A stretch of 64,000 bases of DNA from Escherichia coli (GTDB lineage Bacteria > Pseudomonadota > Gammaproteobacteria > Enterobacterales > Enterobacteriaceae). The first letter of the stretch is position 1. Each line of letters opens with the position of its first letter. The notes under the pieces are model-generated. The model did not search any database. It was not told where the DNA came from and saw nothing but the letters and a program-made list of their open reading frames with translations. The position numbers and the translations under genes are program-made. Positions 22,428-52,840 of the stretch are shown one piece after another. The DNA lies in assembly GCF_044324875.1 (NCBI RefSeq), contig NZ_CP172185.1; one strand, given 5' to 3'.

Positions 22428-23483
22428 TCATAATCCCAGCACCAGTTGTCTTTCCATTTGAGGGTCAAGCAACGTCACATGCAGCCCCACCAGTCGCACA
22501 CCGCGCCCGCCGCGGCGTTCATCCCAGGTTTTACGCGCGGTGGCGATTAGATCAGCTTTATTCAGCCGTGGCCAGACGTGCTCCTGAGTGGTTTGCTGGA
22601 AATCGTCGAACTTTAATTTCACTCCCTGACGGGCAATCAGTAAATCAGGTTTTACCTTTGCCAGACGGCGTTCAAGTTCCGGGTACAGCCGCTCGATAAT
22701 CGCTTCACATTCAGACCAGTGATGAATATCTTCCGCCATCGTGCGTTCCACGCCGACGGATTTTCGCAACCGTTCGCTGTTAACGTCGCGCTCGTCAATC
22801 CCCTGACTACGCTCCCACAAAATGCGGCCAAATTTGCCAAAACGTTTGAGCAGAGTCACCAGATCACACTTTTGCACATCACCGCAGGTCCGCAGCCCCA
22901 TCGCTTCCAGTTTTGCCGCCGAGACTTTGCCGACGCCAGGAATTTTTGCCAGCGGTAAGGTTTGCAGAAATGCCGGAACTTCTGCCGGAGTAATCACAAA
23001 CTGACCGTTGGGTTTATTCATGTCGGAAGCGATTTTAGCGAGAAACTTTACCGGCGCAACGCCCGCAGACGCCGTCAGTTGCAGCTCGTTGAAGATTGTC
23101 TGGCGGATTTCCTGGGCGATGAGGGTCGCAGAACCGTGGCAATGCACACTATCGGTGACGTCGAGATAGGCTTCATCCAGTGATAACGGTTCAATGCGCG
23201 AGGTATAGCGCGAGAAAATTTCGCGGATATGATTTGAGGCTTCTTTGTAGGCGTCAAAGCGCCCTGGAAGCAGCGTGAGATGTGGGCAAAATTTGAGCGC
23301 CATCCCTGTCGGCATAGCGCTACGTACGCCAAATTTACGCGCGGGATAATTGGCGGTGCTGATCACCCCCCGACGTTCGCGGCTGCCGCCAATAGCAATA
23401 GGGATATCGCGCAGGGCAGGATTGTCGCGCATCTCCACCGCTGCGAAAAAGCAGTCCATATCCACATGAATGATTTTACGCAT
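22428..23483 (-). CDS. dinB: DNA polymerase IV (Y-family translesion polymerase)
   Basis: 351-aa [36 protein letters not shown]... Confidence 0.95.
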
Positions 23484-23499
23484 TGCTCACCTCTCAACA

Positions 23500-23515
23500 C
23501 TGGTAAAGTATACAG
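23500..23515 (-). promoter_or_regulatory. LexA (SOS) box of the dinB promoter
   Basis: Minus-strand CTGTATACTTTACCAG (CTG-N10-CAG) about 17 bp upstream of the dinB ATG. Confidence 0.7.
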
Positions 23516-23553
23516 TGATTTCAGAGTTTGAGAAATGCATAAAGATTCAGCAT

Positions 23554-24300
23554 TTAACGCGTTCGCTGCGAAAGCACCTGCTGCTTATCCAGCTTTTGCA
23601 CCAGCGGTTGCACCACTTTATCCCCATGCTGACCAAAGTATTGATACAGCGTATCGGACGCACTTTTGGTCAGCACCATAATCTCAATGCGCCGGTTGCC
23701 CGCGCTTTGCGGATTTTTGGCATCCAGCAGCATCTGGTCCGCCATTGCACTTACCTGCATCACTTTATCTTCCGGCATTCCGGCCTCTTCCAGCACCCGA
23801 CGAGCTGAAAGCGCGCGATCGCCCGAAAGGTTCCAGTTGTTGTAGATATTGTTTTTGTAGGCCATCGCATCGGTATGCCCGGTGATGATGATCTTATTGT
23901 CGAGCGAATCAAAAACCGGTGCTAACTCCACCAGCAAAGTTTTAAAGAACGGCATAATCTGCGCGCTGCCGCGTTCAAACATATTGCGGTTCTGGTCATC
24001 TTTAATCAGCACGCGCAGTCCCTGGGGAACAATCTCCATCTCCAGATTCGCTTCCATATGCGCATCACGGGCAATGGTGTTGATACTGGTTGCCAGCTCG
24101 CCAAGCTCAGTAGCGGATTTCTTCTTCAGCAGCGCCGTTTTCTCGTTGACGTCATGCGCTTTTTTCTCCGTCTCTTCCGGCACCGCCACGGTGGCAGGTT
24201 TTGGCGGATGAGACGGTCTGATTTTATTTAACGGCGACAGCCCGCCACCGTTAAAAATCGACTGCCCGTGCAGCGCGGCGATAATGCTTTCACGCTCGGA
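23554..24300 (-). pseudogene. lafU: 5'-truncated lateral-flagellar MotB-like stator gene (Flag-2 remnant)
   Basis: C-terminal OmpA/MotB-like peptidoglycan-binding region present (IIITGHTD..., NRRIEIMVL) but no N-terminal TM segment; 5' boundary approximate. Confidence 0.7.
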
Positions 24301-26023
24301 TTTACTGACGCTGTTGACAATCAACTTTATCGTCGTCACCAAAGGGGCCGAGCGTATTTCCGAGGTTTCTGCCCGCTTTACCTTAGACGCGATGCCTGGC
24401 AAACAGATGGCGATTGACGCCGATCTTAACGCCGGGTTGATCAACCAGGCGCAGGCGCAAACCCGGCGCAAAGATGTTGCCAGCGAGGCCGATTTCTACG
24501 GCGCGATGGACGGGGCATCGAAGTTTGTGCGCGGGGATGCCATCGCCGGGATGATGATTCTGGCGATCAACCTGATCGGCGGCGTCTGTATCGGGATCTT
24601 CAAATACAACCTGAGCGCCGACGCCGCCTTCCAGCAGTATGTACTGATGACCATCGGCGACGGGCTGGTGGCGCAGATCCCTTCTCTGCTGCTCTCCACC
24701 GCAGCGGCGATTATCGTCACCCGCGTCAGCGACAACGGCGATATCGCCCATGATGTGCGCCACCAGCTGCTGGCAAGCCCGTCGGTGCTCTACACCGCCA
24801 CCGGGATCATGTTTGTGCTGGCGGTTGTGCCGGGGATGCCGCATCTGCCGTTTTTGCTGTTCAGCGCCCTGCTTGGTTTTACCGGCTGGCGGATGAGCAA
24901 ACGCCCGCAGGCGGCGGAGGCGGAAGAGAAAAGCCTCGAAACACTGACCCGAACCATCACCGAAACCAGCGAGCAACAGGTCAGTTGGGAAACTATTCCG
25001 CTGATCGAGCCCATCAGCTTAAGCCTCGGCTACAAGCTGGTGGCGCTGGTGGACAAAGCACAGGGTAACCCGCTCACCCAGCGGATTCGCGGCGTGCGGC
25101 AGGTGATTTCTGACGGCAACGGCGTGCTGCTGCCGGAGATCCGCATTCGGGAAAACTTCCGCCTCAAGCCCAGCCAGTACGCCATTTTCATCAATGGCAT
25201 TAAGGCTGATGAAGCGGATATTCCGGCGGATAAACTGATGGCCCTGCCCTCCAGCGAAACCTACGGCGAGATTGACGGCGTGCTGGGGAACGACCCGGCG
25301 TACGGGATGCCGGTGACCTGGATCCAGCCCGCGCAGAAAGCGAAGGCGCTGAATATGGGGTATCAGGTGATCGACAGCGCCAGCGTGATTGCCACCCATG
25401 TGAACAAGATTGTCCGCAGCTATATTCCTGATTTGTTTAACTATGATGACATCACGCAGTTGCATAACCGTTTGTCGTCGATGGCACCGCGCCTGGCGGA
25501 AGATTTGAGCGCGGCGCTCAATTACAGCCAATTGCTGAAAGTGTACCGGGCGCTGCTGACCGAAGGCGTTTCCCTGCGCGATATTGTCACCATCGCCACC
25601 GTGCTGGTCGCCAGTAGCACAGTGACCAAAGATCATATCCTGCTGGCGGCCGATGTGCGCCTGGCATTGCGGCGCAGCATTACCCATCCGTTCGTTCGCA
25701 AGCAGGAGCTGACGGTGTATACGCTGAATAATGAGCTGGAAAATCTGCTCACCAACGTGGTGAATCAGGCGCAACAGGGCGGGAAAGTGATGCTCGACAG
25801 CGTGCCGGTTGACCCGAATATGCTCAACCAGTTCCAGAGTACGATGCCGCAGGTGAAGGAGCAGATGAAAGCAGCGGGGAAAGCCCCTGTGCTGCTGGTG
25901 CCGCCGCAGCTGCGTCCTTTGCTGGCGCGTTATGCAAGGTTGTTTGCGCCGGGTCTGCATGTGCTGTCGTATAACGAAGTGCCGGATGAGCTGGAGTTGA
26001 AGATTATGGGGGCGTTGAGTTGA
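24300..26023 (+). pseudogene. lfhA: 5'-truncated FlhA-like flagellar export gate gene (Flag-2 remnant)
   Basis: Translation enters within the FlhA core (NFIVVTKGAERISEVSARFTLDAMPGKQMAIDADLNAGLI) and runs through the cytoplasmic domain; N-terminal TM region missing; 5' boundary approximate. Confidence 0.7.
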
Positions 26024-26029
26024 TGGCCT

Positions 26030-26350
26030 TTGGGGCGAATCCGGCATCGGTGCACAATTGCCGGATGCGGCGTGAACGCCTTATCCGGCCTACCGATCCG
26101 GCACAAGTTTGTAGGCATGATAAGACGCGTCAGCGTCGCATCAGGCATCTGCGCACAATTGCCGGATGCGGTGTGAACGCCTTATCCAGCCCACCGATCC
26201 GGCACAGGTTTGTAGGCATGATAAGACGCGCCAGCGTCGCATCAGGCACCGGTGCACAATTGCCGGATGCGGTGTGAACGCCTTATCCGGCCCACCGATC
26301 CGGCACAAGTTTGTAGGCATGATAAGACGCGCCTGCGTCGCATCAGGCAT
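26030..26350. repeat. BIME cluster: three tandem ~105-bp units each carrying two REP palindromes
   Basis: Repeated gccggatgcggcgtgaacgccttatccggcc and gtaggcatgataagacgcg.cagcgtcgcatcaggca units seen three times. Confidence 0.8.
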
Positions 26351-26360
26351 CCGCGCACAA

Positions 26361-26858
26361 TTATAAAATAATACGCTCCCCGGCACTAAAATCCGTTATG
26401 TCTCCCGCCCAATCAATGGGATATAACCCTCGCGCTACATCGCGATGGAACGTTGAGAATGGCCAATCACTCACCTGCTTTACCCAGCCATGTTTCACTG
26501 GATTTATATAAATATAATCAACATGATGGCGATAATCTTTTGTATTGCGAATGGCATGCTCCCAAAAACGCGGTTGCCAGATATTTTTCAATCCGCAAGC
26601 ATGGGTGAACTGCTTTTTAATCTCCCGCCAGCGAGAGGAAAAATCATCATCGCTTTCGGGTAATGTCCAGATACAGTGCATATGCTCTGGCAAAACTACC
26701 CAGGCGTTAATTTCAAAAGGTCTGGCCTGCTTAACTTTAATAATGGCGTTACGGAGTGTCTGGTACTGGGTGGTCAAAAGTTGGCTTCGACGATTCCGTA
26801 AATTTACCGTGAAAAACCATGTTCCCCCCTTGATGTAATAACGACGATATTCAGACAT
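26361..26858 (-). CDS. rayT: REP-associated tyrosine transposase (IS200/IS605 HuH family)
   Basis: 165-aa ORF MSEYRRYYIKGGTWFFTVNL... with HuH motif (LPEHMHCIW) and REP clusters on both flanks. Confidence 0.85.
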   Translation of the reverse strand: MSEYRRYYIKGGTWFFTVNLRNRRSQLLTTQYQTLRNAIIKVKQARPFEINAWVVLPEHMHCIWTLPESDDDFSSRWREIKKQFTHACGLKNIWQPRFWEHAIRNTKDYRHHVDYIYINPVKHGWVKQVSDWPFSTFHRDVARGLYPIDWAGDITDFSAGERIIL

Positions 26859-26939: not shown

Positions 26940-27030
26940 AAAATTCGCAGACTCGTAGGCATGATAAGACGCGGCAGCGTCGCATCAGGCATCGGTGCAC
27001 TATTGCCGGATGCGGCGTGAACGCCTTATC
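26940..27030. repeat. REP/BIME element upstream of rayT
   Basis: gtaggcatgataagacgcggcagcgtcgcatcaggcat...gccggatgcggcgtgaacgccttatccgtcctac. Confidence 0.7.
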
Positions 27031-27034
27031 CGTC

Positions 27035-27793
27035 CTACAAAATCGTCTCTTCCGTCAAAATCCTGCGCGCGCCTAAAAAATGATCCTGCCAGAAAGGTTC
27101 AGCTAACCGACTTACCCGAATGGTTTCCCCGGTGCGCGGCGACTCGATAAACTGACCGTCTCCCAGATACACGCCCATATGATCGGCAATCTCACGGCTG
27201 TGAATATGGAAAAACAGCAAATCTCCCCGGCGCAGGTCGTTATTCGCCACAATCGTTGCCCGATGGTAGTGATACATCTCATTGGCCGTGCGCGGGAGCT
27301 TCGCCTCGAGGATCTTGTTGTAGGCATAAAAAACCAACCCGCTACAGTCGAAGCCTTGATCGGGCCGCGTGCCGCCCCAGACGTAAGGCTTACCAAGCTG
27401 CTGCTCCAGGCGGTGAATCGCCACTTCGGTGATGTTGTGCAGATGGTCGCTGCTTAAGAAATGGTTGTTCTCCGCCAGCGCCTGCCAGCGTCTGTCACTC
27501 GCCTTGAGCGGCGCAGGAAACCATTCTGGATGCTGTTTTATCTGTTCGCGGTTGTGCTGGCGCAGCGCCTTTCTGCTTTCGGCATTGCCTTCCACAATAT
27601 AGCTGGCCTGTTTTTTCAGATGGGTTTGGTACTGTTTTAATAAACGCGCACGGTTTTGCATCCGCTGGCGGGCGGCGTAGCTGAAAGAGATATGTGATGT
27701 GGTGGCGCTGGCGAGTAAAGGGAGCAAAACGCATAACGAAAACACGCCTGGATGCAGAAATCTGCCGTGAAAGAACGAAGACATGAAGGACAT
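27035..27793 (-). CDS. yafL: NlpC/P60-family peptidoglycan endopeptidase lipoprotein
   Basis: 252-aa ORF with signal peptide and NlpC/P60 catalytic region (YVWGG...GFDCSGLV...HMGVYLG). Confidence 0.85.
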   Translation of the reverse strand: MSFMSSFFHGRFLHPGVFSLCVLLPLLASATTSHISFSYAARQRMQNRARLLKQYQTHLKKQASYIVEGNAESRKALRQHNREQIKQHPEWFPAPLKASDRRWQALAENNHFLSSDHLHNITEVAIHRLEQQLGKPYVWGGTRPDQGFDCSGLVFYAYNKILEAKLPRTANEMYHYHRATIVANNDLRRGDLLFFHIHSREIADHMGVYLGDGQFIESPRTGETIRVSRLAEPFWQDHFLGARRILTEETIL

Positions 27794-28084
27794 AAACCGG
27801 CTGAATGAAGGGGAGAATTTTAAAAGACCGGAGGAGTAAGCGGGATTATTAATTGCTTATTTGCATATTACTATTGAGGTTTCATAATCTTAGGAAATAA
27901 ATGATACATGCGCTTTTCGGACTAATGAAAACTGCCCCTGTGCTAAATTTGTAAACCCTGCGCCGACAGGCTTGCGTAAAACTCTTTTGGTGATAATGTG
28001 AGCCTTCCAAATCCAGACTATTCCGATTTGGGATCCATTTTGCCGTCCTGGCGTGTGTAACCGTTTTATCAAGGAATAAGCAGT

Positions 28085-29609: not shown

Positions 29610-29745
29610 GATTTAAGTATTTTCAGGTCGGATGCGGCGTAAACGCATTATTCGGCCTACGGTTCGGGTACAGATTTGTAGGCATGATAAGACGCGTCAG
29701 CGTCGCATCAGGCATCAGCGCACAAATGCCGGATGCGGCGTAAAC
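29610..29745. repeat. REP/BIME elements, the distal one split by the IS insertion
   Basis: gtcggatgcggcgtaaacgcattattcggcctac ... gtaggcatgataagacgcgtcagcgtcgcatcaggcat ... gccggatgcggcgtaaac; the other half-REP (aacgccttatccggcctac) resumes at 31178. Confidence 0.7.
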
Positions 29746-37260: not shown

Positions 37261-37369
37261 TTATCCCTCCAAACAAGACCTGACTCCAGGACAAGAGCAT
37301 AGTGTGTAGTAAACACTTCATGCTCTTGCCCTGACCATTGAAATAACAACTTTCGTTTGTTTACTGTAC

Positions 37370-38530
37370 CAGGGCAAGATTACGAAAGCCCGCTCCCCGC
37401 AAGGACTGACGCCAGGTAGTTTCTGTCCATGGCTGCTTTTCGCATCTTACGTCTTAACCCTGCCTTGAATACCTTATCATTCGTCAAAATATTAATAGCA
37501 ATGTGCCGTATCCCTGAAAATAATTCTGCTGCGTTTCCTCTTCTTATTTTGCAGTCGTCTTCATTCATTACCACGTCCAGACGCCAGTGCAGCTTATTCT
37601 CCACGTGCCAGTGGTTTCGGATTGCTGTGGCGAACTTCTCTGCGGTTAAATCAGCAGAACTGATATAATATCTGACCGTCATTTCGGGCTCTTTCTTTTG
37701 TTCTGCTATTATTGACCGAAAGGAGACTGCCACGCATAATTTCTTCAGACCTTTCCATTCAAACGTGAAATCAATAAGTTCATCAGGGACATCGCAAACA
37801 ATATGAAGACGGATTTCTTCTCTGCCGTGACTCTTTTCACTCATTGCGTAACTGTCATGCTCTGGATTATTTAATTCTTTCAGTGGGAATTTTTCCTCAA
37901 AGGCTTTATTAAGCCGCCCCTGATTTCCTTTTACAGCGAATAAATAATCACCGCCCTGTTTTTGTATCTTCTCTGCAATATCTTTCTGGCAACCCATCGC
38001 ATCAGTTGTGATGATTTTTCCTTTAATATCCAGCATGTTAAGAAGTTCTGGGATAGCTGTAATCTCATTGGATTTCTCATCCGTCTTGATCTGTCCGATG
38101 ACCAGGCTGTGCATTGTTGAGAACGCACTAATGACATGAATCGCTCCCCTGCGGCGACTCTTGTCATAAGAGTGCCGGAGCGTTTTTCCATCAATTGCGA
38201 TGACGTCTTTATCATCTGAAGTATGGCAGTCTCGCATCCAGTTAATAAAGCACTCGTGAAATTTTGCAGGACTGATACAGGATACAACTCTGGCGATGGT
38301 ATCGTGAACAGGAATACCATTTTCAAAATCACCGTATTGTTTTAAAAAATCGAGATGTGTTTCCCCAAAATCCTCTATATCTTCCCAACCTTCTGCACCC
38401 GAAATAACGGCACAAATAGTCAACAGTAGAATATCCGACAATTTATGTTCCACTTTCCAGGCTTGTCTGTAATCGGGAATAACAGAAATATGCTCCATCA
38501 ATTTTTAAGTTCCATTTTGTTCCCCTTAAT
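37370..38530 (-). mobile_element. H-repeat (ISAs1-family) element, apparently intact
   Basis: Encloses a full-length transposase ORF; ends approximate, inverted repeats not resolved by eye. Confidence 0.6.
37380..38501 (-). CDS. ISAs1-family (H-repeat-associated) transposase
   Basis: 373-aa [50 protein letters not shown]... typical of Rhs-associated H-rpt proteins. Confidence 0.8.
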
Positions 38531-38810
38531 TATGTAAGGAGTATTTGATCATGTATAAGTAATAAAAAACAGCCTCAGGTAATGAGGAATATCTCAAATT
38601 TTAAACATAAAATGCGAATTATTTAGTACAAAAAAGCAGCGTTACGTGATCTTTCCCTGTGCCGGTACCTTTGTCGTTTAATCTGGCAGCTAAAGGCATA
38701 TTGTTTTCCTGTCTGGAATATCAGCGACAAAAAATTTAAAAAACGGTAAGGTGCTTAACTCAGTAATAATCACCTTACCGGACATCCTGATTTGTAGCCC
38801 AACAGGTTAA

Positions 38811-39821
38811 TCAAGTAACAGGGATAAACTGACCATCAATCAGCGAAAATACCGGAGCGTAATACCCCATACGCTCTTCACCACTTTCATCTGTAAAACG
38901 GTAAGTCAGTGGGGAATATATTGGTTTCGATTTATTATATAGCTGCACCATACGTCCACCATTCATAACCCGGACGGCATAATCGTCCCACCTGATGGGC
39001 TGCATTCTGGCTTTCCCTCCCTCCACATTATCTTTTGAGAAGAGTGAGAGTAATATGTCATCCTCAGAGTCACCGGTTGTGGCTGACCATGCCTTCAGCG
39101 CCTCTTTGTTATAAGCTTTCAGACGTGCCCTGTCCCGGCTACTGATGATGCTTGCCATTTCGGTATAGGCGGCTTTTAACTTCCGTAACTGCTCGTCGCT
39201 TCCGGTATAGGGGGTTGCCCGCGTCCAGGCCCATTCAGGAAGCCCTGTCACGGTAACTTTTTGAGTGAACTGATACACCTTCATCCCTTTCGGGAAATAG
39301 GTTTCATCAAAATAATCTGGATCAATAAATCCTGGCTCCGCCTGCTCAGCCAAAATCTCTTTCCGGATAACGGGATGCACGCTGTCTGGCCGGGCTTCAG
39401 GTATGCCCTGCTGGTTGATGGTCACTTTTATTGAAGAAAGCAGCGTTTCCTCCTGTTTAATAAAACGAACCAAATCCAGGCTGCATCCTGCTTTTGGAAA
39501 AAAACGCCCCCGTTCTTCCATACTGGCAGGCTTGTCAGAAAACCATCCTAATGCCCCAATCTCCAGACTGATTTCATTTTCTCCATTCGCCATCAGCATC
39601 ATGGCATTGGTGCTGGATATGGCCCCGGTTGAATCACCATTTGCCCGCCAGGCACTTCTTCGGTTACTGAACCCGAGGACGCCATTAGTCTTAATGGCAC
39701 AATATGACTCTTCAATATTAAACTTACTGCGAATTTTTTGCTGGTTATCGTTAGAGCAAAATCCAGTTCCCATAACAACTCCTGACAGTAAAATAACCGA
39801 TATTAAATGTTTTGCCTTCAT
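38811..39821 (-). CDS. Secreted protein, candidate T6SS immunity protein
   Basis: 336-aa ORF with signal peptide and cysteine at the end of the hydrophobic region (MKAKHLISVILLSGVVMGTGFC); immediately downstream of the candidate effector; AT-rich. Confidence 0.45.
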   Translation of the reverse strand: MKAKHLISVILLSGVVMGTGFCSNDNQQKIRSKFNIEESYCAIKTNGVLGFSNRRSAWRANGDSTGAISSTNAMMLMANGENEISLEIGALGWFSDKPASMEERGRFFPKAGCSLDLVRFIKQEETLLSSIKVTINQQGIPEARPDSVHPVIRKEILAEQAEPGFIDPDYFDETYFPKGMKVYQFTQKVTVTGLPEWAWTRATPYTGSDEQLRKLKAAYTEMASIISSRDRARLKAYNKEALKAWSATTGDSEDDILLSLFSKDNVEGGKARMQPIRWDDYAVRVMNGGRMVQLYNKSKPIYSPLTYRFTDESGEERMGYYAPVFSLIDGQFIPVT

Positions 39822-39887
39822 AATTATTCTCTCTCAAAAGGGGAAAATACTCATTATACTGTTCACTTTTAATTTCTGTAATATCAC

Positions 39888-41459
39888 TTAATAATCCATA
39901 CCTATCGTCCACGTTGTCACTGGCTTCGGCGGTGTTACTTTTTTCTCCACAGTGCGTTCTTTACCGTATAAATTAACCCGTAATGGTGAATCCTTTACCT
40001 CCATAGGATCACATAACTGCCACTCAACGGTATCTTTCTTCTCAGGTTTTTCGCTCTTTTCCTTCCCCTTTCCTTTTTCATCAACTTCACCATGAGACAC
40101 ATCAATCTTAAATTCAAACTTCCCTTTAATGCCGTCATGAAATAATGCTAGGTCCAGTCCGTCATCATGTGAATCAAATCCAAATCCAGCTTTCGCTTCT
40201 ATAGAGGCAGTCGCTTCGGCGGTCAGTTGTACAACAAAAACATTCGCCTCAAACGTCGCACTCACCACACCTTTTAAACCGAGCTTGATGTTACTTTCCT
40301 TTACATTAAACTCCCATTTTTTATCCTTTTCAGCGTATACTGCGCCAAGATCAAGATTAATCTCCGCTGAAATCTCGATATAGCATTCAACACTGGCTCC
40401 GTTTTTACGGAGATATTCACGACATCTGTTGACCAATGACTCGACTTTACAATATGCACATATAAATGAAATAATATCGAATCTGAACGACGCTTCAAAA
40501 AATGGGGCACCAAACAAACCATAAAAATGACAGGGGCCATCCTGGATATCGGTATATTGATAGGCATACGATATACCCAGTTTAACGGGTTCTATTTTTG
40601 CACTGAACAATGCATATTTGCGCGTACCATTATTATTGTCAGGATCTGGCGCAAAATATTTATTGACATTCTTGACCAGAGAGTCAATTCTTCCTATCTG
40701 TTCCAGTTGCTTTGTTTGTCGAAGTTTTTTTATCTCTTTTTCATATTCACTTGTGTGTTCAACATTAGCTATTTTTACGCCAAAATCGACAGTCAGGGAA
40801 GTCTTGTTTATCCACTCAAACTCAGCAGTGGTATTTGTCCAGCCGCTACGGAGTTTATTTTTATCCCTGGGCTTGGTGTTCTCCATTGCGTCCCTGGCTT
40901 TTATTCTTTCGTCACGCCGCTCTTTTACTGTTCTCGTCTGTTTTGATGACGAAATCTCATAGCTGAACCCTGTAGTAAACCTAATTTCCACTGTAGGATA
41001 AACATCAATTTCAACATAATTGCCACATTCGTAACAACTGTCAATTCTGACTGAATAATGGGCAGGTTCATAATGATTCTTAAGTGGAGAGGATATTGCC
41101 CCCAAATAATCCCATGGTACTCGAAATGTACCCATAGCAATTATTTCACCTTCAGACAAGTTATCATCCAAAGTGACCTTATTAGGTATTCCGAAAGGTT
41201 GCAGTATCTTATGATTATTTTCTGATTCTTCCTCTAACCATGCCTCATGTGTTCCACTTTTATCGCACTGGTAGGTAATGGTAATTATACCATCACATCC
41301 GGAACCATCATCCAGTAGCTTAAAACGCGCCACTCCTTCTTTTGACCAGAAATGTTTCTCGCCGGCCTCTGGAAAATCACTAATAACATCAAAAATACAT
41401 GGATCAGGAATGCCGCATTCCACACAGGGCTTTCCGGCTGTCGAAGATGGAGATGTCAT
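39888..41459 (-). CDS. Candidate T6SS cargo effector of unknown function
   Basis: 523-aa ORF downstream of the DUF4123 adaptor gene; Cys-rich N-terminus (CVECGIPDPC, CYECGNY), charged coiled-coil-like middle, Lys/Glu-rich C-terminus; no motif I recognise; AT-rich. Confidence 0.45.
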   Translation of the reverse strand: MTSPSSTAGKPCVECGIPDPCIFDVISDFPEAGEKHFWSKEGVARFKLLDDGSGCDGIITITYQCDKSGTHEAWLEEESENNHKILQPFGIPNKVTLDDNLSEGEIIAMGTFRVPWDYLGAISSPLKNHYEPAHYSVRIDSCYECGNYVEIDVYPTVEIRFTTGFSYEISSSKQTRTVKERRDERIKARDAMENTKPRDKNKLRSGWTNTTAEFEWINKTSLTVDFGVKIANVEHTSEYEKEIKKLRQTKQLEQIGRIDSLVKNVNKYFAPDPDNNNGTRKYALFSAKIEPVKLGISYAYQYTDIQDGPCHFYGLFGAPFFEASFRFDIISFICAYCKVESLVNRCREYLRKNGASVECYIEISAEINLDLGAVYAEKDKKWEFNVKESNIKLGLKGVVSATFEANVFVVQLTAEATASIEAKAGFGFDSHDDGLDLALFHDGIKGKFEFKIDVSHGEVDEKGKGKEKSEKPEKKDTVEWQLCDPMEVKDSPLRVNLYGKERTVEKKVTPPKPVTTWTIGMDY

Positions 41460-41480
41460 ATAATCTATCCGTTTGTCTTT

Positions 41481-42323
41481 TTATTGTGGGATAAATCCCA
41501 GTTCCTGTTGTGCAAGTTCATGTACCCGAATATGTCCCGGGTATGACTGATTGCTGAGTTGTTCATACCAGTCATCCGGAATATATCTGAGATCGATTAT
41601 ATTTTTTTTCAGTAATATAAGCGTCATTGTTCTGACGGAACGATCATCTGCTATATTTAATGACTGGCAAAAAGAGAAATAATCTTCTGCCAGAATTCGG
41701 GATGATTCAGCTTTTGATGAATCATCCCATCCGTTTTTATCTACATTTTCTTCGATAAATGCAGATAATATATCAAGATAATTATCCCGTGCCTTTCGTT
41801 CCAGTTGGCTATATTGTCTGTAACTCAGCGTCAGTTGTGATGGCCGTTCTGCCCTTATATTCATAGTTTCTGCGGGACGGACGGAAGAAAAATTATCCTC
41901 ACGACATTCTTCACCATAACGGGTACTTAGCTGTCTGACGGGACTGATAAAAGAAAGACGCTGGCGGGGGGTCAGAACTTCCACTAATACCCATATATTC
42001 CGGGGATCATAAAATCGCATGAGAACAGGTTTCTCCTGTTCGGGGATCCTAACCCACAGATAACGTCTGAAGTGTTGCTGTAGCTCACGCATGGATGACT
42101 CAGAAGTCAGATATATTCCCCATGGCGACGCCTTAACACTCAGCCATGCTTCAACCTCCGGAACGACTTCCACGAGATAGGGGGCTAGCGCGACCAGATC
42201 CAGTTGTATGGGTTCTGCATACAGACAACAGTGCGGGGGATTCACCTCGTTCAGAAAATCCAGCAATCCTTCCTCCACAGCGCCATCCACAATGGCGTAC
42301 TGCACGGGTGCCGTTTCCATCAC
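41481..42323 (-). CDS. DUF4123-family T6SS effector adaptor/chaperone (Tap/Tec-like)
   Basis: 280-aa ORF with the family's N-terminal YAIVDGA-type motif; start overlaps the vgrG stop (ATGA). Confidence 0.7.
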   Translation of the reverse strand: MMETAPVQYAIVDGAVEEGLLDFLNEVNPPHCCLYAEPIQLDLVALAPYLVEVVPEVEAWLSVKASPWGIYLTSESSMRELQQHFRRYLWVRIPEQEKPVLMRFYDPRNIWVLVEVLTPRQRLSFISPVRQLSTRYGEECREDNFSSVRPAETMNIRAERPSQLTLSYRQYSQLERKARDNYLDILSAFIEENVDKNGWDDSSKAESSRILAEDYFSFCQSLNIADDRSVRTMTLILLKKNIIDLRYIPDDWYEQLSNQSYPGHIRVHELAQQELGFIPQ

Positions 42324-44278
42324 TTATCCTCCTTCGGGCAGTGCGCCACAAACATTGTCCCGCTTCCGGCTGCGGCTTTCAGGATCACCGGGCGCATCGG
42401 CAGGATCACGTCTCCCGGACTGCCTCCGCCGTTAAGATTGATTTTCGCGCCCTTAATATCCACGCCGCCGGAATGGATCACCACAAATGAACCGCCCACC
42501 CGCAGACTGATTTTGCTGTCGCTCTGTAAAACAATATCGCCCTGTACGCTGATACCCAGCGCGCCGCTTATTTTCTGTGCCAGATCGCCTTTCACCTCCA
42601 GCCCCTGATTGCCCTCTGTCAGGCTGACATGGTCTTTGGTGGTTTTATGGTCCTGTTTACCTTCAACCGTCACTTTCCGGTCATTTGCCACCACCAGGGA
42701 TTCATCATGCCCGATGCTGACCGTCCGGTCATAGTTGACCCGCTTATCCTTGCTGTTCAGCACAACGACTTGCATATTTTTCTGTGCGTGCAGGTAAATT
42801 TCTTCCTTGTCCGTCGCGTCCTCGAACCGCAGTTCATTAAAGCCGCTTCCTTTATAGGTCTTCGATCGTATCGTCATCTGCGTCTTCGTCCCCGGCAGAC
42901 TCCCCGGCGAACGGTTGTCCTCATGGTACGTCCGCCCCATGATTATCGGCTGGTCCGGGTCGCCGTTCAGGAAGTCTACAATCACTTCCTGGCCGATGCG
43001 CGGTATCGCCAGGTTACCAAATCCCGGCCCCGCCCACGCCTGCGACACCCTCACCCAGCATGAACTCGCCTCCGTTGCCGGGTTATACCTGTCCCAGTGA
43101 AACTGCACTCGCACACGTCCGTGTTCGTCGCAGAAGATTTCCTCTCCCGCAGGACCGGTGACAATGGCGCTCTGTGGCCCGTCCACCTTCGGTTTGCTTT
43201 GCAGCCGTGGACGCCACGTCCGGTCCGCCGGTATCACCTCTAACTGATTTCCCAGCATGGTTCCTCTCCCCTGGCTGCCGTGCAGCGCCTGCGGCTGGTC
43301 CCCTGACAGAATACTCTGTACCACCTGCCATTCACGGTTCAGCATCTTCTGCGGATGCCCCGTCAGCGTAAACCGCGTTCCCGGCCACAGCTTCGGTGAA
43401 TTACTCTGCCCTGTGGCCTTTTCCGCATCACTGCGCAGGCTCTCCATCTGGTACAGCGTGAAATCCTTGCCGTGCTGTTCATCCTTGAACCTTCCCGGAT
43501 AATCAAATATCTCATACTGCTCCAGCTGTCCGTTCAGGTTCTCACCCTGCTGCTCATACATCCCCGGCCAGTCCGGCACCTTAAACGTGTAATCCTGGCT
43601 CTGCACCGACGACGGGCGGACATACGCCTCATAACGGAACATACTGACACACTCTGTCTCCGCTCCTGCCGATGTGTCCGGGTTAAACGGAAGCTCTCCC
43701 GCCTGTGACAGCCCCGCCACATCGTCGCACAGCGTCAGCTTCTGCTCCGGACTGTCCGCCGCAAACCGCTCAAAGAAGAAAATTCCCTCCTCCGCCCACA
43801 ACCGCGCCAGAAACGCCAGGTCGCTTTCCCCGTACTGGACACAGAACTCCCGCGCCGGATGGTCCTCATAAAACAGCGGTGTCCACTCCGTGACGCCGTT
43901 CTCGTTCAGTAACGTGGCCGATATCGTCCGGATATCCTGCTGCTGGAAGATACGGAAGTTCTGCCGCAGCCCGCACCGCCATAACGGCGGCTCAATACGC
44001 AGGTGATAACGCATCTGCCAGCCATTGTTCTCCTGCATGCCAAAACCCGCCACCACGCCGGTGACATAACGCAGCGGGATGACGCCCTGCCAGATGGTCA
44101 GCGTCGCCTTCTTCTCCAGCAGCATCTCCGCCGTCTGCATAAAAGAGTCGCTGGCAACATCCACACTCATCACAAACGGATAAGACTGGTTCTGGATTAA
44201 CCTGAAATGCACCACTGCAAAGGTGTCCGGCTCCTGGCCGTCAATCTCCAGCGTAAAGCGCAGACCTTTTAAGGACAT
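42320..44278 (-). CDS. vgrG: T6SS spike protein VgrG
   Basis: 652-aa ORF MSLKGLRFTLEIDGQE... with gp27/gp5-like VgrG architecture and C-terminal beta-helical repeats. Confidence 0.9.
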   Translation of the reverse strand: MSLKGLRFTLEIDGQEPDTFAVVHFRLIQNQSYPFVMSVDVASDSFMQTAEMLLEKKATLTIWQGVIPLRYVTGVVAGFGMQENNGWQMRYHLRIEPPLWRCGLRQNFRIFQQQDIRTISATLLNENGVTEWTPLFYEDHPAREFCVQYGESDLAFLARLWAEEGIFFFERFAADSPEQKLTLCDDVAGLSQAGELPFNPDTSAGAETECVSMFRYEAYVRPSSVQSQDYTFKVPDWPGMYEQQGENLNGQLEQYEIFDYPGRFKDEQHGKDFTLYQMESLRSDAEKATGQSNSPKLWPGTRFTLTGHPQKMLNREWQVVQSILSGDQPQALHGSQGRGTMLGNQLEVIPADRTWRPRLQSKPKVDGPQSAIVTGPAGEEIFCDEHGRVRVQFHWDRYNPATEASSCWVRVSQAWAGPGFGNLAIPRIGQEVIVDFLNGDPDQPIIMGRTYHEDNRSPGSLPGTKTQMTIRSKTYKGSGFNELRFEDATDKEEIYLHAQKNMQVVVLNSKDKRVNYDRTVSIGHDESLVVANDRKVTVEGKQDHKTTKDHVSLTEGNQGLEVKGDLAQKISGALGISVQGDIVLQSDSKISLRVGGSFVVIHSGGVDIKGAKINLNGGGSPGDVILPMRPVILKAAAGSGTMFVAHCPKEDK

Positions 44279-44452
44279 AATGACCTCCCTGATTTATTCA
44301 CGGACCAAATGATTCTTACCATGCAGCAAAGGGTGCCAGTGCAGCGTTACACTCATCTTTACATTTTCAGGTACGCTACCGCCCGGGTTTCCGGCATCCG
44401 CCATCTCCCTCATGAAAGCGTAACTCCTTACTGACACTCATTTTTTACACGT

Positions 44453-44488
44453 ACAAAAACAACATCCTGCACGAAGGCAGGATGTTGT
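44453..44488 (-). terminator. Hairpin terminator/attenuator between hcp and vgrG
   Basis: Minus-strand CAACATCCTGCC-ttcgtg-GGCAGGATGTTG followed by TTTTTG immediately after the hcp stop. Confidence 0.45.
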
Positions 44489-44498
44489 TGACTCAGAT

Positions 44499-45017
44499 TT
44501 ATGCTTCCAGCGGTGCACGCCAGTCATCGGCACCAGAAGTACCGGATTTGATGTGCTCCCACTCAACCTTACGGTATGCCAGTGATACTGCGAGCAATTG
44601 CGTAAACTCACGCTGTGCAGGGTCCTGGCAGTGCGGCATGTGCAGGTTCATGTCCACAATCGTCGCGTCAGTAAGACGTGTGGTGAAGTAGTGCTCCTGC
44701 TTGCCTTCAACTGAAGTACGCCACCAGTGCAGCTCCACTTTCGGCAGCATTTCACCGGAGGCCAGCGCGTTGTACAGCAGCGGAACGGCTTTGTTCAGCG
44801 CCACGGTGAAAATGAACGGTTTGTGCGCGCGCTGCCCGGAAGGTTGACCAGACTGTGGATCGGTTGGAACAGTAACGTTATGCAGAAACTCCTGCACCAG
44901 CATTTCATCTTCGTGTCCCTGCACGTAGATATTGCCGACAGAATCTGCGGTGAAAGCACCGGCAGTGATGTTCCCCTGGGTCTGACCTGTAATTGAAATG
45001 TAACATGGGGTTGGCAT
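44499..45017 (-). CDS. hcp: T6SS inner tube protein Hcp
   Basis: 172-aa ORF MPTPCYISITGQTQGNITAGAF... typical Hcp. Confidence 0.9.
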   Translation of the reverse strand: MPTPCYISITGQTQGNITAGAFTADSVGNIYVQGHEDEMLVQEFLHNVTVPTDPQSGQPSGQRAHKPFIFTVALNKAVPLLYNALASGEMLPKVELHWWRTSVEGKQEHYFTTRLTDATIVDMNLHMPHCQDPAQREFTQLLAVSLAYRKVEWEHIKSGTSGADDWRAPLEA

Positions 45018-45396
45018 TTATGAACTCCTTGTGAAATTATCAACTGCTGTTTTACGAACAACCCGTCGTTAATCCCCGACGGGTTAGAGTGTGATGCGGC
45101 TCACATCAGGAACCACACCCTTTTCTTTATTCGAGTTACAGGCACACGTAATTAGCACCTACTGAAAAACTCTTTTATGGTGTTTAAATATATTTTTAGT
45201 CAATTTCAGAACACGGTCACATAAGCTAAAAATATATCAACTTCAACAGCAGAATTATCCATAACGTATCCTTCCCCCCATAAAAATCCACAGCCGCGTC
45301 AAAAACAAATTATTACGACACTTACTCAGCCATCGTTCCAGCACGCAATTAAGACATTCCTTAAAGGAATTCCTTATGATGTATTTCCAGCAATTA

Positions 45397-45406
45397 ATCA
45401 ATTGAT
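45397..45406. promoter_or_regulatory. Perfect 10-bp palindrome in the divergent hcp/tssB control region (candidate regulator binding site)
   Basis: ATCAATTGAT within AATTAATCAATTGATAAAA in the ~700-bp AT-rich intergenic region; resembles AT-rich Fur-type half sites but not verified. Confidence 0.2.
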
Positions 45407-45719
45407 AAAACCATACATAAAACTTATTAATAAATTTAATAAATACATATAAATCAATATATTATGGCATTTTATTGACCGTAAAATCATATTCATCAAG
45501 TCTATAAATACCAAAATTTATTTCACTATAATATATTAGCAAGGAAGAATACATCTCTTTCTAAAATATAAATAGTTCTTTTAATATTTTATTTCATGAG
45601 TAGAATACCGATCACAACAGAAGGAAGGTTACATTATCTAACTGCCACTGAAACGGTATCTTCGGTATTTTTATGCAGTACGAAAATGCTGTGCTCATGG
45701 CCTGAACGGGAACATTTTT

Positions 45720-46223
45720 ATGAGCAAAATGAACAACAATGGCGGCAGTGTCGCGCCGAAAGAAAGAATCAGCGTTCGGTATACACCAAAAGTTGATGGG
45801 GTGGCTGCTGATATCGAATTGCCGCTGAATTTATTGATCACCGGCAATCTGAAAGGGAAACCAGATAACACGCCGTTGGACGAGCGAACTGCCATTGCTA
45901 TCAACCGCTATAACCTCAACGCAGTCATTTCAGAAGCTGACATTGAACGGGAGTTTGTTGTTCCGGCTGAACTCAGTGACGCTCCCAATGAGCAAATGTA
46001 CGTCAACCTGAAAGTCAAATCTATGGATGACCTTTCTCCGGACCATATTGCCAGCCAGGTACCAGAAATAAAACGTCTGCTCGAATTGCGTGAAGCTCTG
46101 GTCGCACTTAAGTCTCCACTAGGCAATATTCCGGCCTTCCGCGCACAACTTCAGGCGCTACTGGAAAACGAAGACAGCCGCGAGCAGCTGATCCAAGAAC
46201 TGGGTATCGCCGCTCAGAAATAA
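45720..46223 (+). CDS. tssB: T6SS contractile sheath small subunit
   Basis: 167-aa ORF, first gene after the divergent promoter region, followed by tssC. Confidence 0.9.
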   Translation: MSKMNNNGGSVAPKERISVRYTPKVDGVAADIELPLNLLITGNLKGKPDNTPLDERTAIAINRYNLNAVISEADIEREFVVPAELSDAPNEQMYVNLKVKSMDDLSPDHIASQVPEIKRLLELREALVALKSPLGNIPAFRAQLQALLENEDSREQLIQELGIAAQK

Positions 46224-46245
46224 TTTTCACAGAAGGATTTTCAGT

Positions 46246-47730
46246 ATGTCAGTAAAGGAAGATATTGCTCCCGTCAGCGCGTCGCAAACCGCCGCGCCCC
46301 CATCTCTGCTTGATGAAATCATGGCGCAAACCCGCGTCCAGCCTAAATCAGAAAGCTACGATATCACCCGCCAGGGCGTGAGCGCCTTTATTGCCGCCAT
46401 GTTACAGGGCGACAGTAGCGCTGAACCTATCAATATCCTGGCCGTTGACGCCATGATTGCTGATATTGATGCCCGAACCAGCAGGCAGATGGATGCCATT
46501 ATTCATGCCCCGGAGTTTCAGGAACTGGAATCCCTGCTGCGCTCGCTGAAGCTGCTGGTTGAACGCGCGGATACACGGGAAAACATCAAGGTCCATTTCC
46601 TGAATGTCACTCAGGAAGAACTGCTGGATGATTTCGAATTTGCACCTGAAATCACGCAGTCTGCGTATTACAAGCATGTATATTCAAGCGGTTACGGACA
46701 ATTTGGCGGTGAGCCAGTGGCGGCGGTAATCGGCAACTTTGCCTTTAAGAACACCACGCCGGATATGAAGTTGCTGAAATATATCAGCCAGGTCAGTGCG
46801 ATGGCGCACAGCCCGTTCCTCTCATCAGTATCATCCGAATTTTTCGGTCTGGACTCATGGACAGAGTTACCAGGGATCAAAGAACCAGGAGCAATCTTTG
46901 AAGGCCCGGCCTATTCCCGCTGGCGTGCCTTGCGTGAATCTGAAGATTCACGCTACCTGGGACTGACTGCCCCCCGGTTCCTGCTGCGTCACCCTTACTC
47001 GCCAGATGAGAACCCAGCCAGGACCTTCCGTTACCATGAAGACGTCAGCCAGAGTCACGAGTCTTATTTGTGGGGGAACACCTCGTTTTTACTAGCTGCG
47101 AACCTGGCTGAAAGTTTTGCTAAATATCGCTGGTGTCCCAATATCATTGGCCCTTCCAGCGGCGGCGCAGTCAAAGACCTCCCGGTGCATCTGTATGAAT
47201 CCATGGGGCAAATGCAGGCAAAAATTCCGACTGAAGTGTTGATCACTGACCGGAGAGAGTATGAGCTGGCGGAAGAAGGCTTTATCACACTGACCATGCG
47301 TAAAGGATCTGATAATGCGTGCTTTTTCTCGGCCAACTCGGTGCAGAAACCCAAAAAATTCCCCAAAACCCCCGAAGGCAAGGCTGCGGAGACCAACTAT
47401 AAACTCGGCACTCAGCTGCCATACTTATTTGTAATCAGTAGGTTAGCGCATTACATCAAGGTAATTCAGCGCGAACAGCTTGGCTCATGGAAAGAACGCA
47501 GTGACCTGGAGCGTGAGCTGAACACCTGGATTCGCCAGTATGTGGCCGACCAGGAGAATCCGCCTGCCGAAGTCCGCAGCCACCGACCATTACGTCAGGC
47601 GAAGATCGAGGTACTTGATGTGGATGGTGAGCCAGGCTGGTACCAGGTCGCGATTTCTGTCAGACCGCATTTTAAATACATGGGTGCCAGTTTCGACCTG
47701 AGTCTGGTCGGACGACTGGATAAGGAATAA
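46246..47730 (+). CDS. tssC: T6SS contractile sheath large subunit
   Basis: 494-aa ORF directly after tssB. Confidence 0.9.
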   Translation: MSVKEDIAPVSASQTAAPPSLLDEIMAQTRVQPKSESYDITRQGVSAFIAAMLQGDSSAEPINILAVDAMIADIDARTSRQMDAIIHAPEFQELESLLRSLKLLVERADTRENIKVHFLNVTQEELLDDFEFAPEITQSAYYKHVYSSGYGQFGGEPVAAVIGNFAFKNTTPDMKLLKYISQVSAMAHSPFLSSVSSEFFGLDSWTELPGIKEPGAIFEGPAYSRWRALRESEDSRYLGLTAPRFLLRHPYSPDENPARTFRYHEDVSQSHESYLWGNTSFLLAANLAESFAKYRWCPNIIGPSSGGAVKDLPVHLYESMGQMQAKIPTEVLITDRREYELAEEGFITLTMRKGSDNACFFSANSVQKPKKFPKTPEGKAAETNYKLGTQLPYLFVISRLAHYIKVIQREQLGSWKERSDLERELNTWIRQYVADQENPPAEVRSHRPLRQAKIEVLDVDGEPGWYQVAISVRPHFKYMGASFDLSLVGRLDKE

Positions 47731-47734
47731 TCAG

Positions 47735-48160
47735 ATGCAAAGACGGGATTCAGGGCCAACCAGCAGTCTTTTTGAACGTATTCGTGAGGCGGCCAACCCG
47801 CCTTCATACCAGAATACAAAAGAAGCACTGATACGTTCCATCAGACGTAACCTGCGACAGGTCCTGAATACCCGCTCCGGCAGTTGTTATGGCTCACCAG
47901 AGCTGGGGATTACTGATTTAAATGATGAATCGCTGGCCTCCAGCGATTTCAGACGAGAAATCCGTAAGTCCATTAGCCAGTGCATTTTACATTACGAACC
48001 TCGTATTACCGATGTTGTTGTTACGGCTGCGGCACCGGATGAATACGCCCCTGTGGAACTACGTTTTCATATTGTGGCTACGGTCGATGTCAGCGAAACC
48101 AGGGGAGTGTTTGAATTTGACATTTTGCTGGACAATCATCAACGCTATTGTGTGGAGTGA
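47735..48160 (+). CDS. tssE: T6SS baseplate protein (gp25-like)
   Basis: 141-aa ORF, gp25-like lysozyme-fold baseplate subunit. Confidence 0.8.
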   Translation: MQRRDSGPTSSLFERIREAANPPSYQNTKEALIRSIRRNLRQVLNTRSGSCYGSPELGITDLNDESLASSDFRREIRKSISQCILHYEPRITDVVVTAAAPDEYAPVELRFHIVATVDVSETRGVFEFDILLDNHQRYCVE

Positions 48161-50007
48161 TCTCTGTGGCTTTTGAAGAACGTTACTACCGCGAAGAGCT
48201 GGATTATCTTCGCCAGCTTGGCAAACTGCTGGCGCAGGAAAAACCACATCTGGCCCACTTTCTGGCCGAGAAAGAGGGTGATCCGGACGTGGAGCGTCTG
48301 ATGGAAGCCTTTGCCTTTATGTCCGGTAGCCTGCGTCAGAAACTTGAGGACGAATTCCCCGAATTCACCCATGGGCTAATCCGTATGCTGTGGGCAAACT
48401 ATTTACGCCCAGTTCCGGCCATGACGGTTATTGCCTATGAACCCAAAACCGATCAGTTAAAAGTCCCTGTTCAAGTCTGCCGTAATGAACTGATCAGAAG
48501 CCGCTCAGAAAAGTCCGCCCTGGCTGCTCAGAAGGTGCTGTCTGACAATCATGATAAAATCGTTTCTTCCGTAGCCTGTCATTTCACGCTGGCGCGCGAT
48601 ATCTGGCTGCAACCACTGCGCATTCTCGACACCCACAACGCCAGCAGCCTGAAAGAAGGCATCATAGATATCAGTTTTACCGCAGATAACAATGTCTCCC
48701 CCGCCATGCTTGACCTGAACAAAATAACGTTCTGGCTGGGTAATGAAGACGATTATACCCGACACCAACTTTATCTGTGGTTTTGCGAATGCCTGATGGA
48801 TGCGGAACTGATTGCCGGAGAGTACCGCCTGCCGCTGCCGGATCTGTGGCTGGAGGCCGCCGGATTTGAAAACCAGGACGCACTGCTGCCGTGGCCGAAA
48901 AATGTCCACAGCGGCTATCGGGTACTCCAGGAGTATTTCTGCTATCCCGAAGCCTTCTTTTTTTTCCATCTGCGCGATGTTGCGCCACTACCGGACGATT
49001 TCCCGGCCAGCGCGTTTACGCTGCGCCTGCACTTTAACCGCCCGTTACCTGCCGACATCAAGCTACGCCGGGACTCACTGCGTCTGCACTGTACGCCAGC
49101 CATTAACCTGTTTACGCATTATGCGGAACCCGTCAGGCCTGATGGGCGGATAGCGGAATACCCGCTGCGCGCCAGCCACCGGCATCCCGACGCTTATGAC
49201 ATTTTTCAGATAAGCACAGTCACCAGCAAAGTCAAAGTTTCAGGTACTGAATCCAACCCTGGCAGCCAGGCGCGTGTCTGGCCCGAATTTGAAAGTTTCC
49301 AGCACCAGATGGAGTACAGCCGCCAGCGGGAAGTCGTCTACTGGCATCACCGGACTAAAACATCCCTGTTTCACCGCGGGCTTGAACATAGTATCGCCTT
49401 TGTCCATGCGGACGGCAGCATTCCGGACAGCTCACGGTTTAATGATGATGTGATCACCACGTCATTAATCTGTACCAACCGTATGATCCCTGCTCGGCTG
49501 CATATCGGCGATATCTGCGTGGCCGTCAACAAAAACCCGGCGGTGGCCTCATTTCATAATGTCACACGCCCGACGCAGCCGCTCTGGCCAGTCACGGACG
49601 GCGACATGCACTGGTCGCTGATTTCCGCGATGAACCTGAACTACCTATCCCTGCTGGACAGGGAGACACTGATCCAGATCCTGCGGACCTTCGACCTGCC
49701 AGGCGCTCACCATCCGCAGCGGGCCAGACTGTCGCGCCAGAAACTGGATGCCATAGAAAAACTCGAAACCAAACCTGTTGACAGGTTGTTTAAAGGCGTG
49801 CCGGTTCGCGGGCTGGCGACCACGCTGTGGATACGTCCCGATCCATTTATCTGCGAAGGTGAAATTTATCTTCTTGGTACAGTGCTCTCGCACTTTTTTG
49901 CTCTCTACGCCAGCATCAATTCGTACCACTGTCTGAAAATCATCAACACGGAAAGTCAGGAGGCCTGGGAATGGCAGGAGAAAATGGGTCAGCACGCCCT
50001 TATATAG
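48148..50007 (+). CDS. tssF: T6SS baseplate protein TssF
   Basis: 619-aa ORF overlapping the tssE stop. Confidence 0.85.
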   Translation: MCGVISVAFEERYYREELDYLRQLGKLLAQEKPHLAHFLAEKEGDPDVERLMEAFAFMSGSLRQKLEDEFPEFTHGLIRMLWANYLRPVPAMTVIAYEPKTDQLKVPVQVCRNELIRSRSEKSALAAQKVLSDNHDKIVSSVACHFTLARDIWLQPLRILDTHNASSLKEGIIDISFTADNNVSPAMLDLNKITFWLGNEDDYTRHQLYLWFCECLMDAELIAGEYRLPLPDLWLEAAGFENQDALLPWPKNVHSGYRVLQEYFCYPEAFFFFHLRDVAPLPDDFPASAFTLRLHFNRPLPADIKLRRDSLRLHCTPAINLFTHYAEPVRPDGRIAEYPLRASHRHPDAYDIFQISTVTSKVKVSGTESNPGSQARVWPEFESFQHQMEYSRQREVVYWHHRTKTSLFHRGLEHSIAFVHADGSIPDSSRFNDDVITTSLICTNRMIPARLHIGDICVAVNKNPAVASFHNVTRPTQPLWPVTDGDMHWSLISAMNLNYLSLLDRETLIQILRTFDLPGAHHPQRARLSRQKLDAIEKLETKPVDRLFKGVPVRGLATTLWIRPDPFICEGEIYLLGTVLSHFFALYASINSYHCLKIINTESQEAWEWQEKMGQHALI

Positions 50008-51020: not shown

Positions 51021-51026
51021 TTCTAT

Positions 51027-52317: not shown

Positions 52318-52838
52318 ACGGCAAAGCGTTTCTGGCCTGCGTTCTGATGAGCGTTGTGTTAACTGGCTGTGAAACAGCGAAAAAAATCAGCCAGGTGATC
52401 CGCAATCCGGATATTCAGGTCGGAAAGCTGATGGATCAGTCAACCGAGCTGACCGTCACGCTGCTGACCGAGCCGGACAGCAACCTGACGGCGGACGGTG
52501 AAGCCGCGCCGGTGGATGTCCAGTTGGTGTATCTGAGCGACGACTCCAAATTCCAGGCCGCCGATTACGATCAGATTGCCACCACCGCGCTGCCCGACGT
52601 GCTGGGGAAGAACTATATCGATCACCAGGACTTCAACCTGTTGCCGGACACCGTAAAAACACTGCCGCCGATCAAGCTGGATGAGAAAACCGGTTATATC
52701 GGTGTCATTGCCTATTTTTCAGACGACCAGGCCACAGAATGGAAACAAATTGAGCCGGTAGAAAGTATCGGCCACCACTATCGCCTGCTGGTGCATATCC
52801 GCGCCAGTGCGATTGAGATGAAAAAAGAGGAAAACTGA
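52314..52838 (+). CDS. tssJ: T6SS outer-membrane lipoprotein TssJ
   Basis: 174-aa ORF with lipoprotein signal and lipobox (VVLTGC). Confidence 0.8.
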   Translation: MNGKAFLACVLMSVVLTGCETAKKISQVIRNPDIQVGKLMDQSTELTVTLLTEPDSNLTADGEAAPVDVQLVYLSDDSKFQAADYDQIATTALPDVLGKNYIDHQDFNLLPDTVKTLPPIKLDEKTGYIGVIAYFSDDQATEWKQIEPVESIGHHYRLLVHIRASAIEMKKEEN

Positions 52839-52840
52839 CG

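Follow-up and report, generated by a model that had tools for sequence, protein, structure and literature searches.

In Escherichia coli K-12 and B, the genes fhiA (lfhA) and mbhA (lafU) are the terminal remnants of the Flag-2 lateral flagellar gene cluster (PMC3032704). Truncated lfhA/lafU pairs have also been reported in 531 of 4,028 Enterobacterales strains (PMC6993521). Since these two sources describe the lfhA/lafU remnants, the feature itself is already known. The lafU/lfhA pair has also been listed among 'overlapping genes' (PMC1940028). We analyzed a stretch of 64,000 nucleotides (64 kb) from an E. coli chromosome, hereafter called the window, and compared its lafU/lfhA locus with that of K-12 and with the intact Flag-2 locus of enteroaggregative E. 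coli 042.

The gene order in the window is rtcB, yafP, yafO', yafN, dinB, lafU', lfhA', a REP array, rayT, yafL, dpaA and yafJ. This segment corresponds to the K-12 yafJ-pepD region in reversed orientation. The scar lies between dinB and rayT/yafL, and the same synteny is found in K-12 and 042. The span at positions 23554-26023 contains a minus-strand open reading frame (ORF) of 305 amino acids (23554-24471) and a plus-strand ORF of 579 amino acids (24284-26023). The features of the locus are as follows.

22428-23483, minus strand: dinB, which is conserved as the gene to the left of the Flag-2 site
23554-24322, minus strand: lafU' remnant, the 3' 769 nt of a 924-nt MotB-like lateral stator gene, with its stop codon at 23554-23556
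24320-24322: deletion junction, the triplet ATC, which is present in both parental sequences
24320-26023, plus strand: lfhA' remnant, the 3' 1704 nt of a 2094-nt FlhA-like export-gate gene, with the frame open to its natural stop
24284-24319, plus strand: artefactual 5' extension of the lfhA' ORF (MLSRSDLLTLLT), encoded by antisense lafU', with an ATG at 24284
24323-24471, minus strand: artefactual 5' extension of the lafU' ORF, encoded by antisense lfhA', with a TTG at 24471

An earlier note on this DNA had claimed that only the 3' parts of a MotB-like and an FlhA-like gene are left here, on opposite strands. The ORFs, Pfam searches and alignments to K-12 and 042 confirmed this. In lafU', about 52 N-terminal codons including the transmembrane helix and the plug are gone, and the OmpA-like domain is retained. 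The 255 lafU-derived amino acids matched only OmpA in Pfam, whereas full-length LafU of 042 (307 amino acids) matched MotB_plug at residues 19-70 in addition. In lfhA', 130 N-terminal codons are absent relative to 042. The 566 lfhA-derived amino acids covered positions 104-656 of the 657 positions in the FHIPEP profile, whereas full-length LfhA of 042 (697 amino acids) covered positions 1-656. Thus, the 5' ends are missing from both genes. The missing N-terminal parts of lafU and lfhA were found nowhere in the 64-kb window, so that no intact N-terminal region of either gene contradicts the claim. The two remnants face each other with their 5' ends, and no interior gene of Flag-2 is present between or near them. 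When the 36,005-bp Flag-2 interior of 042 was searched against the 64-kb window, REP-type repeats were the sole matches. A functional lateral flagellar system of the Flag-2 or Vibrio laf type has about 40 structural, export, motor and regulatory genes; only two truncated genes are left at this locus.

The junction was placed by aligning the window with K-12 and with each end of the intact 042 Flag-2 locus, and by an ungapped SNP map. The window follows antisense lafU up to ...GCTGTTGACAATC, where 042 goes on with CACAG. From ATCAACTTTATC the window follows lfhA, and the preceding sequence in 042 is ...CTGATGATC. The parental sequences at the junction are ...GTTGACAATC, continued by CACAG across the breakpoint, in antisense lafU, and ...GATGATCATC, continued by AACTTT, in lfhA. 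The ATC triplet is the only perfect microhomology at the junction, and 9 of 12 positions match in the 12 bp ending there. Relative to 042, the deletion removed 36,005 bp and one copy of the triplet (approximately 36.0 kb). It took out the initial 155 nt of lafU and the initial 390 nt of lfhA, together with all genes from lafT to lfhB.

The two genes had also been described as overlapping at about 24280-24470. Overlapping ORFs do exist in this interval; however, the gene remnants themselves do not overlap but meet at the 3-bp microhomology. In the RefSeq annotation of K-12, the pair appears as lafU and an N-terminally truncated FlhA pseudogene with a 35-bp overlap, and the start of the K-12 'lafU' coding sequence is equivalent to position 24339 of the window. 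Both overlaps arise because the ORFs run on across the junction. An Rfam scan of the 21-30 kb region gave only REP-derived naRNA4 matches, and none of them was within the scar.

We aligned the junction to K-12 and to the intact 042 locus, as the earlier note had proposed, and the junction nucleotide was identical to that of K-12. Positions 24220-24420 of the window aligned to the K-12 lafU-lfhA junction without a gap and with a single C/T difference at 24331. Against 042, the same interval aligned, again without a gap, to each end of the intact Flag-2 locus. An 80-mer spanning the junction was found at 100% identity in, for example, O157:H7 genomes, and at 98.8% (one base) in K-12. An uninterrupted match was present in about 4,085 of the 5,426 complete E. 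coli genomes (75%). The genomes in which only part of the 80-mer or of the full span was matched were mostly those with an intact locus, matched at two separate places. The K-12 pair, lafU (mbhA) and lfhA (fhiA), shares with the window the genes, their truncations, the neighbours (dinB; rayT/yafL) and the junction nucleotide, at an overall identity of 96.0%. The alignments, the prevalence and the literature thus support the earlier view that this is the known Flag-2 deletion scar of many E. coli strains. We are highly confident that the window carries this scar, in non-functional form and with the K-12 junction. For the strain itself, the scar is mainly a marker for the absence of lateral flagella despite a 042-like backbone.

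The backbone was compared with 042 in several segments. Identity was 99.945% over the 16.3-kb region of the type VI secretion system (T6SS; cluster at 37574-53835), 99.5% over yafJ-rayT, and 99.1% over 12.6 kb leftward of the junction. The parts of lafU and lfhA that are retained in the window are collinear with the intact 042 locus, and the two backbones are 99.1-99.9% identical; unlike the window, 042 keeps the 36.0-kb interior. Two further differences are 49 sites in lfhA' and, on the lafU side, a tract at 23031-24253 that is divergent in 042. This tract of 042 runs from inside dinB through the 3' part of lafU, with 43 SNPs relative to the window and to the strains M7424 and 118UI. Thus, intact strains are mosaic here too.

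Within lfhA' and at its right border, two further features were located.

24397-25783: recombinant tract inside lfhA', 1.39 kb, with 48 SNPs relative to the scar strain M7424
26039-26362: REP/BIME array between lfhA' and rayT, in which a 101-bp unit is repeated in tandem 3.2 times

The window was identical to M7424 in all 200-bp bins outside 24397-25783. Inside this interval it is equal to the scar strain MEW, and it is equal to the intact strain KY178 until 1,295 bp past the junction; the lfhA' of K-12 differs from that of the window in this MEW/KY178-type tract. The left end of the tract falls within 24254-24396, and the junction is inside this interval. The lafU' of the window is 100% identical both to the intact lafU of strain 118UI and to the scar strain M7424. 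In the scar strain C4, the left flank is KY178-like and the right flank is of the 042 type, so that the haplotype switches at the junction. From the mosaic flanks and the switches at the junction, we conclude that recombination reshuffles the flanks around a fixed junction.

Further differences were observed around the locus. Unlike those of K-12, the flanks of the window are 042-like in lacking dinJ-yafQ, in the internal stop of yafO and in the intact rtcB-prfH. The toxin-antitoxin pair dinJ-yafQ, which lies between yafL and dpaA in K-12, is absent at 27794-28084 as in 042, with about 224 bp in place of the roughly 830 bp present in K-12. The yafO gene is interrupted at 21883-22080, leaving an ORF of 65 amino acids, and the antitoxin gene yafN is intact. 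The yafO sequence is identical to that of 042, whose RefSeq yafO is flagged 'internal stop'. The rtcB-prfH genes are full length at 19279-21041, as in 042 and M7424, and K-12 has fragments of both. A single ISAs1-family copy is present at 37369-38660, next to the T6SS cluster; at this place in 042, ISAs1 is split by a group II intron (ltrA), and a second ISEc1 is present. REP sequences at 26039-26362 and 26958-27035 gave three naRNA4 matches above the gathering score. Repeats akin to the REP/BIME array were also found at 29629-29745, and the number of units varies between strains. The right border is variable in E. coli: 118UI has ISEc31 between rayT and lfhA, a hicB-like gene replaces rayT in KY178, and MEW is without rayT, yafN and yafO.

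The exact E. coli junction was also scanned as a 35-mer against species-representative genomes. Only the E. albertii type strain and two contigs of metagenome-assembled genomes (MAGs) matched, and the MAG contigs look like E. coli contamination. More distant taxa were therefore reached by protein searches. The E. albertii type strain shares 89% identity with the window in its flanks. Its lfhA' is frameshifted by a 22-bp deletion, equivalent to about 25253-25275 of the window; no other examined scar showed a clear sign of decay. With the lfhA' ORF as query, a protein search detected N-terminally truncated LfhA proteins that open with an antisense-lafU peptide. The DNA of each of these loci was compared, and the same junction nucleotide was found in Atlantibacter subterranea, Atlantibacter hermannii, Ewingella americana (Yersiniaceae), a Cedecea-like lineage ('Enterobacter sp. 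Ap-916') and three further lineages (taxa V, Y and Z). The consensus across genera reads ...AT(C/T) before the junction and AACTT(T/C)... after it. Thus, the junction is common to nine lineages including E. coli and E. albertii. The genes neighbouring the scar differ among E. albertii, Atlantibacter, Ewingella, the Cedecea-like lineage and the others. Between lineages, synonymous sites are saturated (dS > 1), and the dN/dS of 0.03-0.2 between genera is accordingly an upper bound.

The scar proteins were then compared with intact LfhA of the same taxon. At the protein level, scar LfhA' and intact LfhA were 99.1% identical in A. subterranea, 99.8% in Ewingella, 99.8% in the Cedecea-like lineage, 99.3% in taxon V and 98.95% in taxon Y. 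In A. hermannii an intact form of LfhA was looked for and none was seen, and in taxon Z the nearest intact LfhA was 92% identical. The LfhA proteins were listed with one representative per 90% cluster. Ewingella at first appeared to be scar-only, with the nearest listed intact LfhA at 75%. This was rejected, as the cluster holds intact members of 694-697 amino acids that are 99-99.8% identical to the scar protein. Short E. coli LfhA' clusters (P0056 and P0110) were considered as a sign of decay and dropped, because most of their named members are 'partial' entries at contig ends.

The reading that we prefer, and regard as probable, is one old illegitimate deletion whose junction has persisted as a presence/absence allele. 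An ancestral lateral flagellar cluster of about 40 genes would have lain between dinB and rayT/yafL, with lfhA and lafU at its edges, both transcribed outwards. One illegitimate recombination at the 3-bp microhomology (ATC), presumably independent of RecA, may have removed 36.0 kb (in 042 coordinates). LafU' has lost the transmembrane/plug segment together with its partner LafT, and LfhA' the 130 N-terminal membrane-domain residues together with the rest of the export apparatus, and the remnants would probably be unable to build anything. The junction in the window would then be identical by descent to that of K-12, the scar allele having later been moved and reshuffled by homologous recombination. 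In the window, this allele is set in a 042-like backbone with a further 1.39-kb imported tract in lfhA'. The flanks may be continually overwritten from co-existing intact alleles, with conversion tracts ending where homology ends. Such overwriting is proposed to explain why the flanks look young and why haplotypes switch at the junction.

The sequences at the breakpoint are consistent with such an accident. The lafU and lfhA genes share several perfect direct repeats of 9-11 bp, which rank far above the junction diagonal and were not used. Thus, the 3-bp junction looks like a single accident, not like a homology hot spot. A hot spot of microhomology or short repeats was rejected, since better direct repeats than the one at the junction were available. 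Furthermore, the lafU-side junction sequence varies between genera, and this speaks against a sequence-specific recombinase. Pseudo-scars were constructed from the flanks of 042 and KY178. Among 4,071 scar genomes, neither had an exact twin, and the best identities were 99.4% and 98.9%.

A single origin is nevertheless strained by three observations. The first is the near-identity of the scar strain M7424 and the intact strain 118UI. On the lafU side they are identical over 5.3 kb right to the junction, and on the lfhA side 1 of 1,995 bp differs, followed by no difference in 4.1 kb, with no imported SNPs. The second is the low dN/dS of the remnants, which is 0.03-0.06 within Escherichia, even between scar strains. 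All E. coli scars examined have open frames, and the private substitutions in scar alleles are almost all synonymous; for one allele on a MAG contig, the counts are 28 synonymous and 0 non-synonymous. The third is the junction shared by the nine lineages. Given this junction and the near-identical intact alleles, a one-off event must be very old and must have been kept polymorphic through speciation with its flanks refreshed.

Among the other explanations, recurrent precise excision survives best, although we think it unlikely. In this explanation, Flag-2 was lost repeatedly in strains and genera and was always cut at about codon 52 of lafU and codon 130 of lfhA, and the scar of the window arose in a 042-like lineage independently of that of K-12. 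The population pattern fits it well: the matched pair M7424 (scar) and 118UI (intact) shows no foreign SNPs on either side, the remnants look young everywhere, with open frames and the low dN/dS within Escherichia, the same junction, flanked by native sequence, occurs in six or more species from two families, and one junction is overwhelmingly dominant among the sampled E. coli genomes. However, we find no fitting mechanism, given a microhomology of 2-3 bp and the better 9-11-bp repeats left unused. The lafU-side sequence varies by genus (GTTGACAATC, GCTTAGAATT, CCCCATAATT and others), so that there is no shared recognition site. No recombinase gene is annotated in 042 Flag-2, and the 042 and KY178 haplotypes are without exact scar twins. 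An att site of a tyrosine or serine recombinase would have a conserved core with inverted-repeat arms common to the two ends, and a cognate recombinase; at this junction, only 3 bp are shared. An 8-bp inverted repeat flanking the E. coli lafU breakpoint was considered as a recombinase-type site and rejected, because Ewingella, the Cedecea-like lineage and taxon V do not conserve it.

Retention of the truncated genes for a function appears improbable. Here the remnants would form a conserved two-gene module in which, for example, a truncated FlhA-like protein modulates the primary flagellar export gate. The 566-codon lfhA' and 249-286-codon lafU' frames are open in most lineages, the dN/dS between scar alleles of different genera is low even as an upper bound (0.03-0.2, dS being saturated), and the lafU'/lfhA' pair is kept in 75% of E. 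coli. However, lfhA' is frameshifted in the E. albertii type strain by the 22-bp deletion. Moreover, neither remnant has a conserved start codon or signal peptide across the lineages, and LafU' is without an export signal for its periplasmic domain. The signature of purifying selection could also be lent through recombination by the near-identical intact alleles of the same taxon, except in A. hermannii and taxon Z.

That the scar is an empty attB-like integration site, at which a Flag-2 island inserts and completes both genes, is highly improbable: the same junction does occur in many taxa, and the scar and intact forms are allelic at one locus, but the 042 cluster contains no integrase, no repeat or core beyond 3 bp is common to its two ends, the divergence between intact alleles is smooth across the junction position without the predicted 'landing-pad' step, and two truncated genes are implausible as an ancestral state.

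Thus, we retain the single old deletion as the preferred reading. It is a more doubtful proposition that Flag-2 loss is a position-specific recurrent event across the Enterobacterales, or that a single junction has been carried as a balanced polymorphism through the divergence of families. If the loss were recurrent and position-specific, it could mean that a 36-kb flagellar cluster is excised precisely by a mechanism not yet recognised. In either case, Flag-2 is a natural test case of a large cluster that stays polymorphic, or is lost repeatedly at one base, over long times.

The closest comparison outside E. coli is the 'en bloc deletion' of lfhA-lafU described by De Maayer et al. (2020), who report truncated pairs in taxa that also have complete flag-2 loci (PMC6993521). 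Our analysis confirms such pairs at the nucleotide level in Atlantibacter, Ewingella, the Cedecea-like lineage and others. It further shows that the junction is at the same base in all of these taxa, a statement absent from the passages of that report considered here. The scar itself being known, this identity across families is the one point worth following.

A parallel within E. coli is the ETT2 type III secretion cluster. Both are ancestral clusters for secretion or motility, and in most strains they are degraded. The decay of ETT2 has proceeded by many different lesions; the loss of Flag-2, by contrast, is dominated by one junction.
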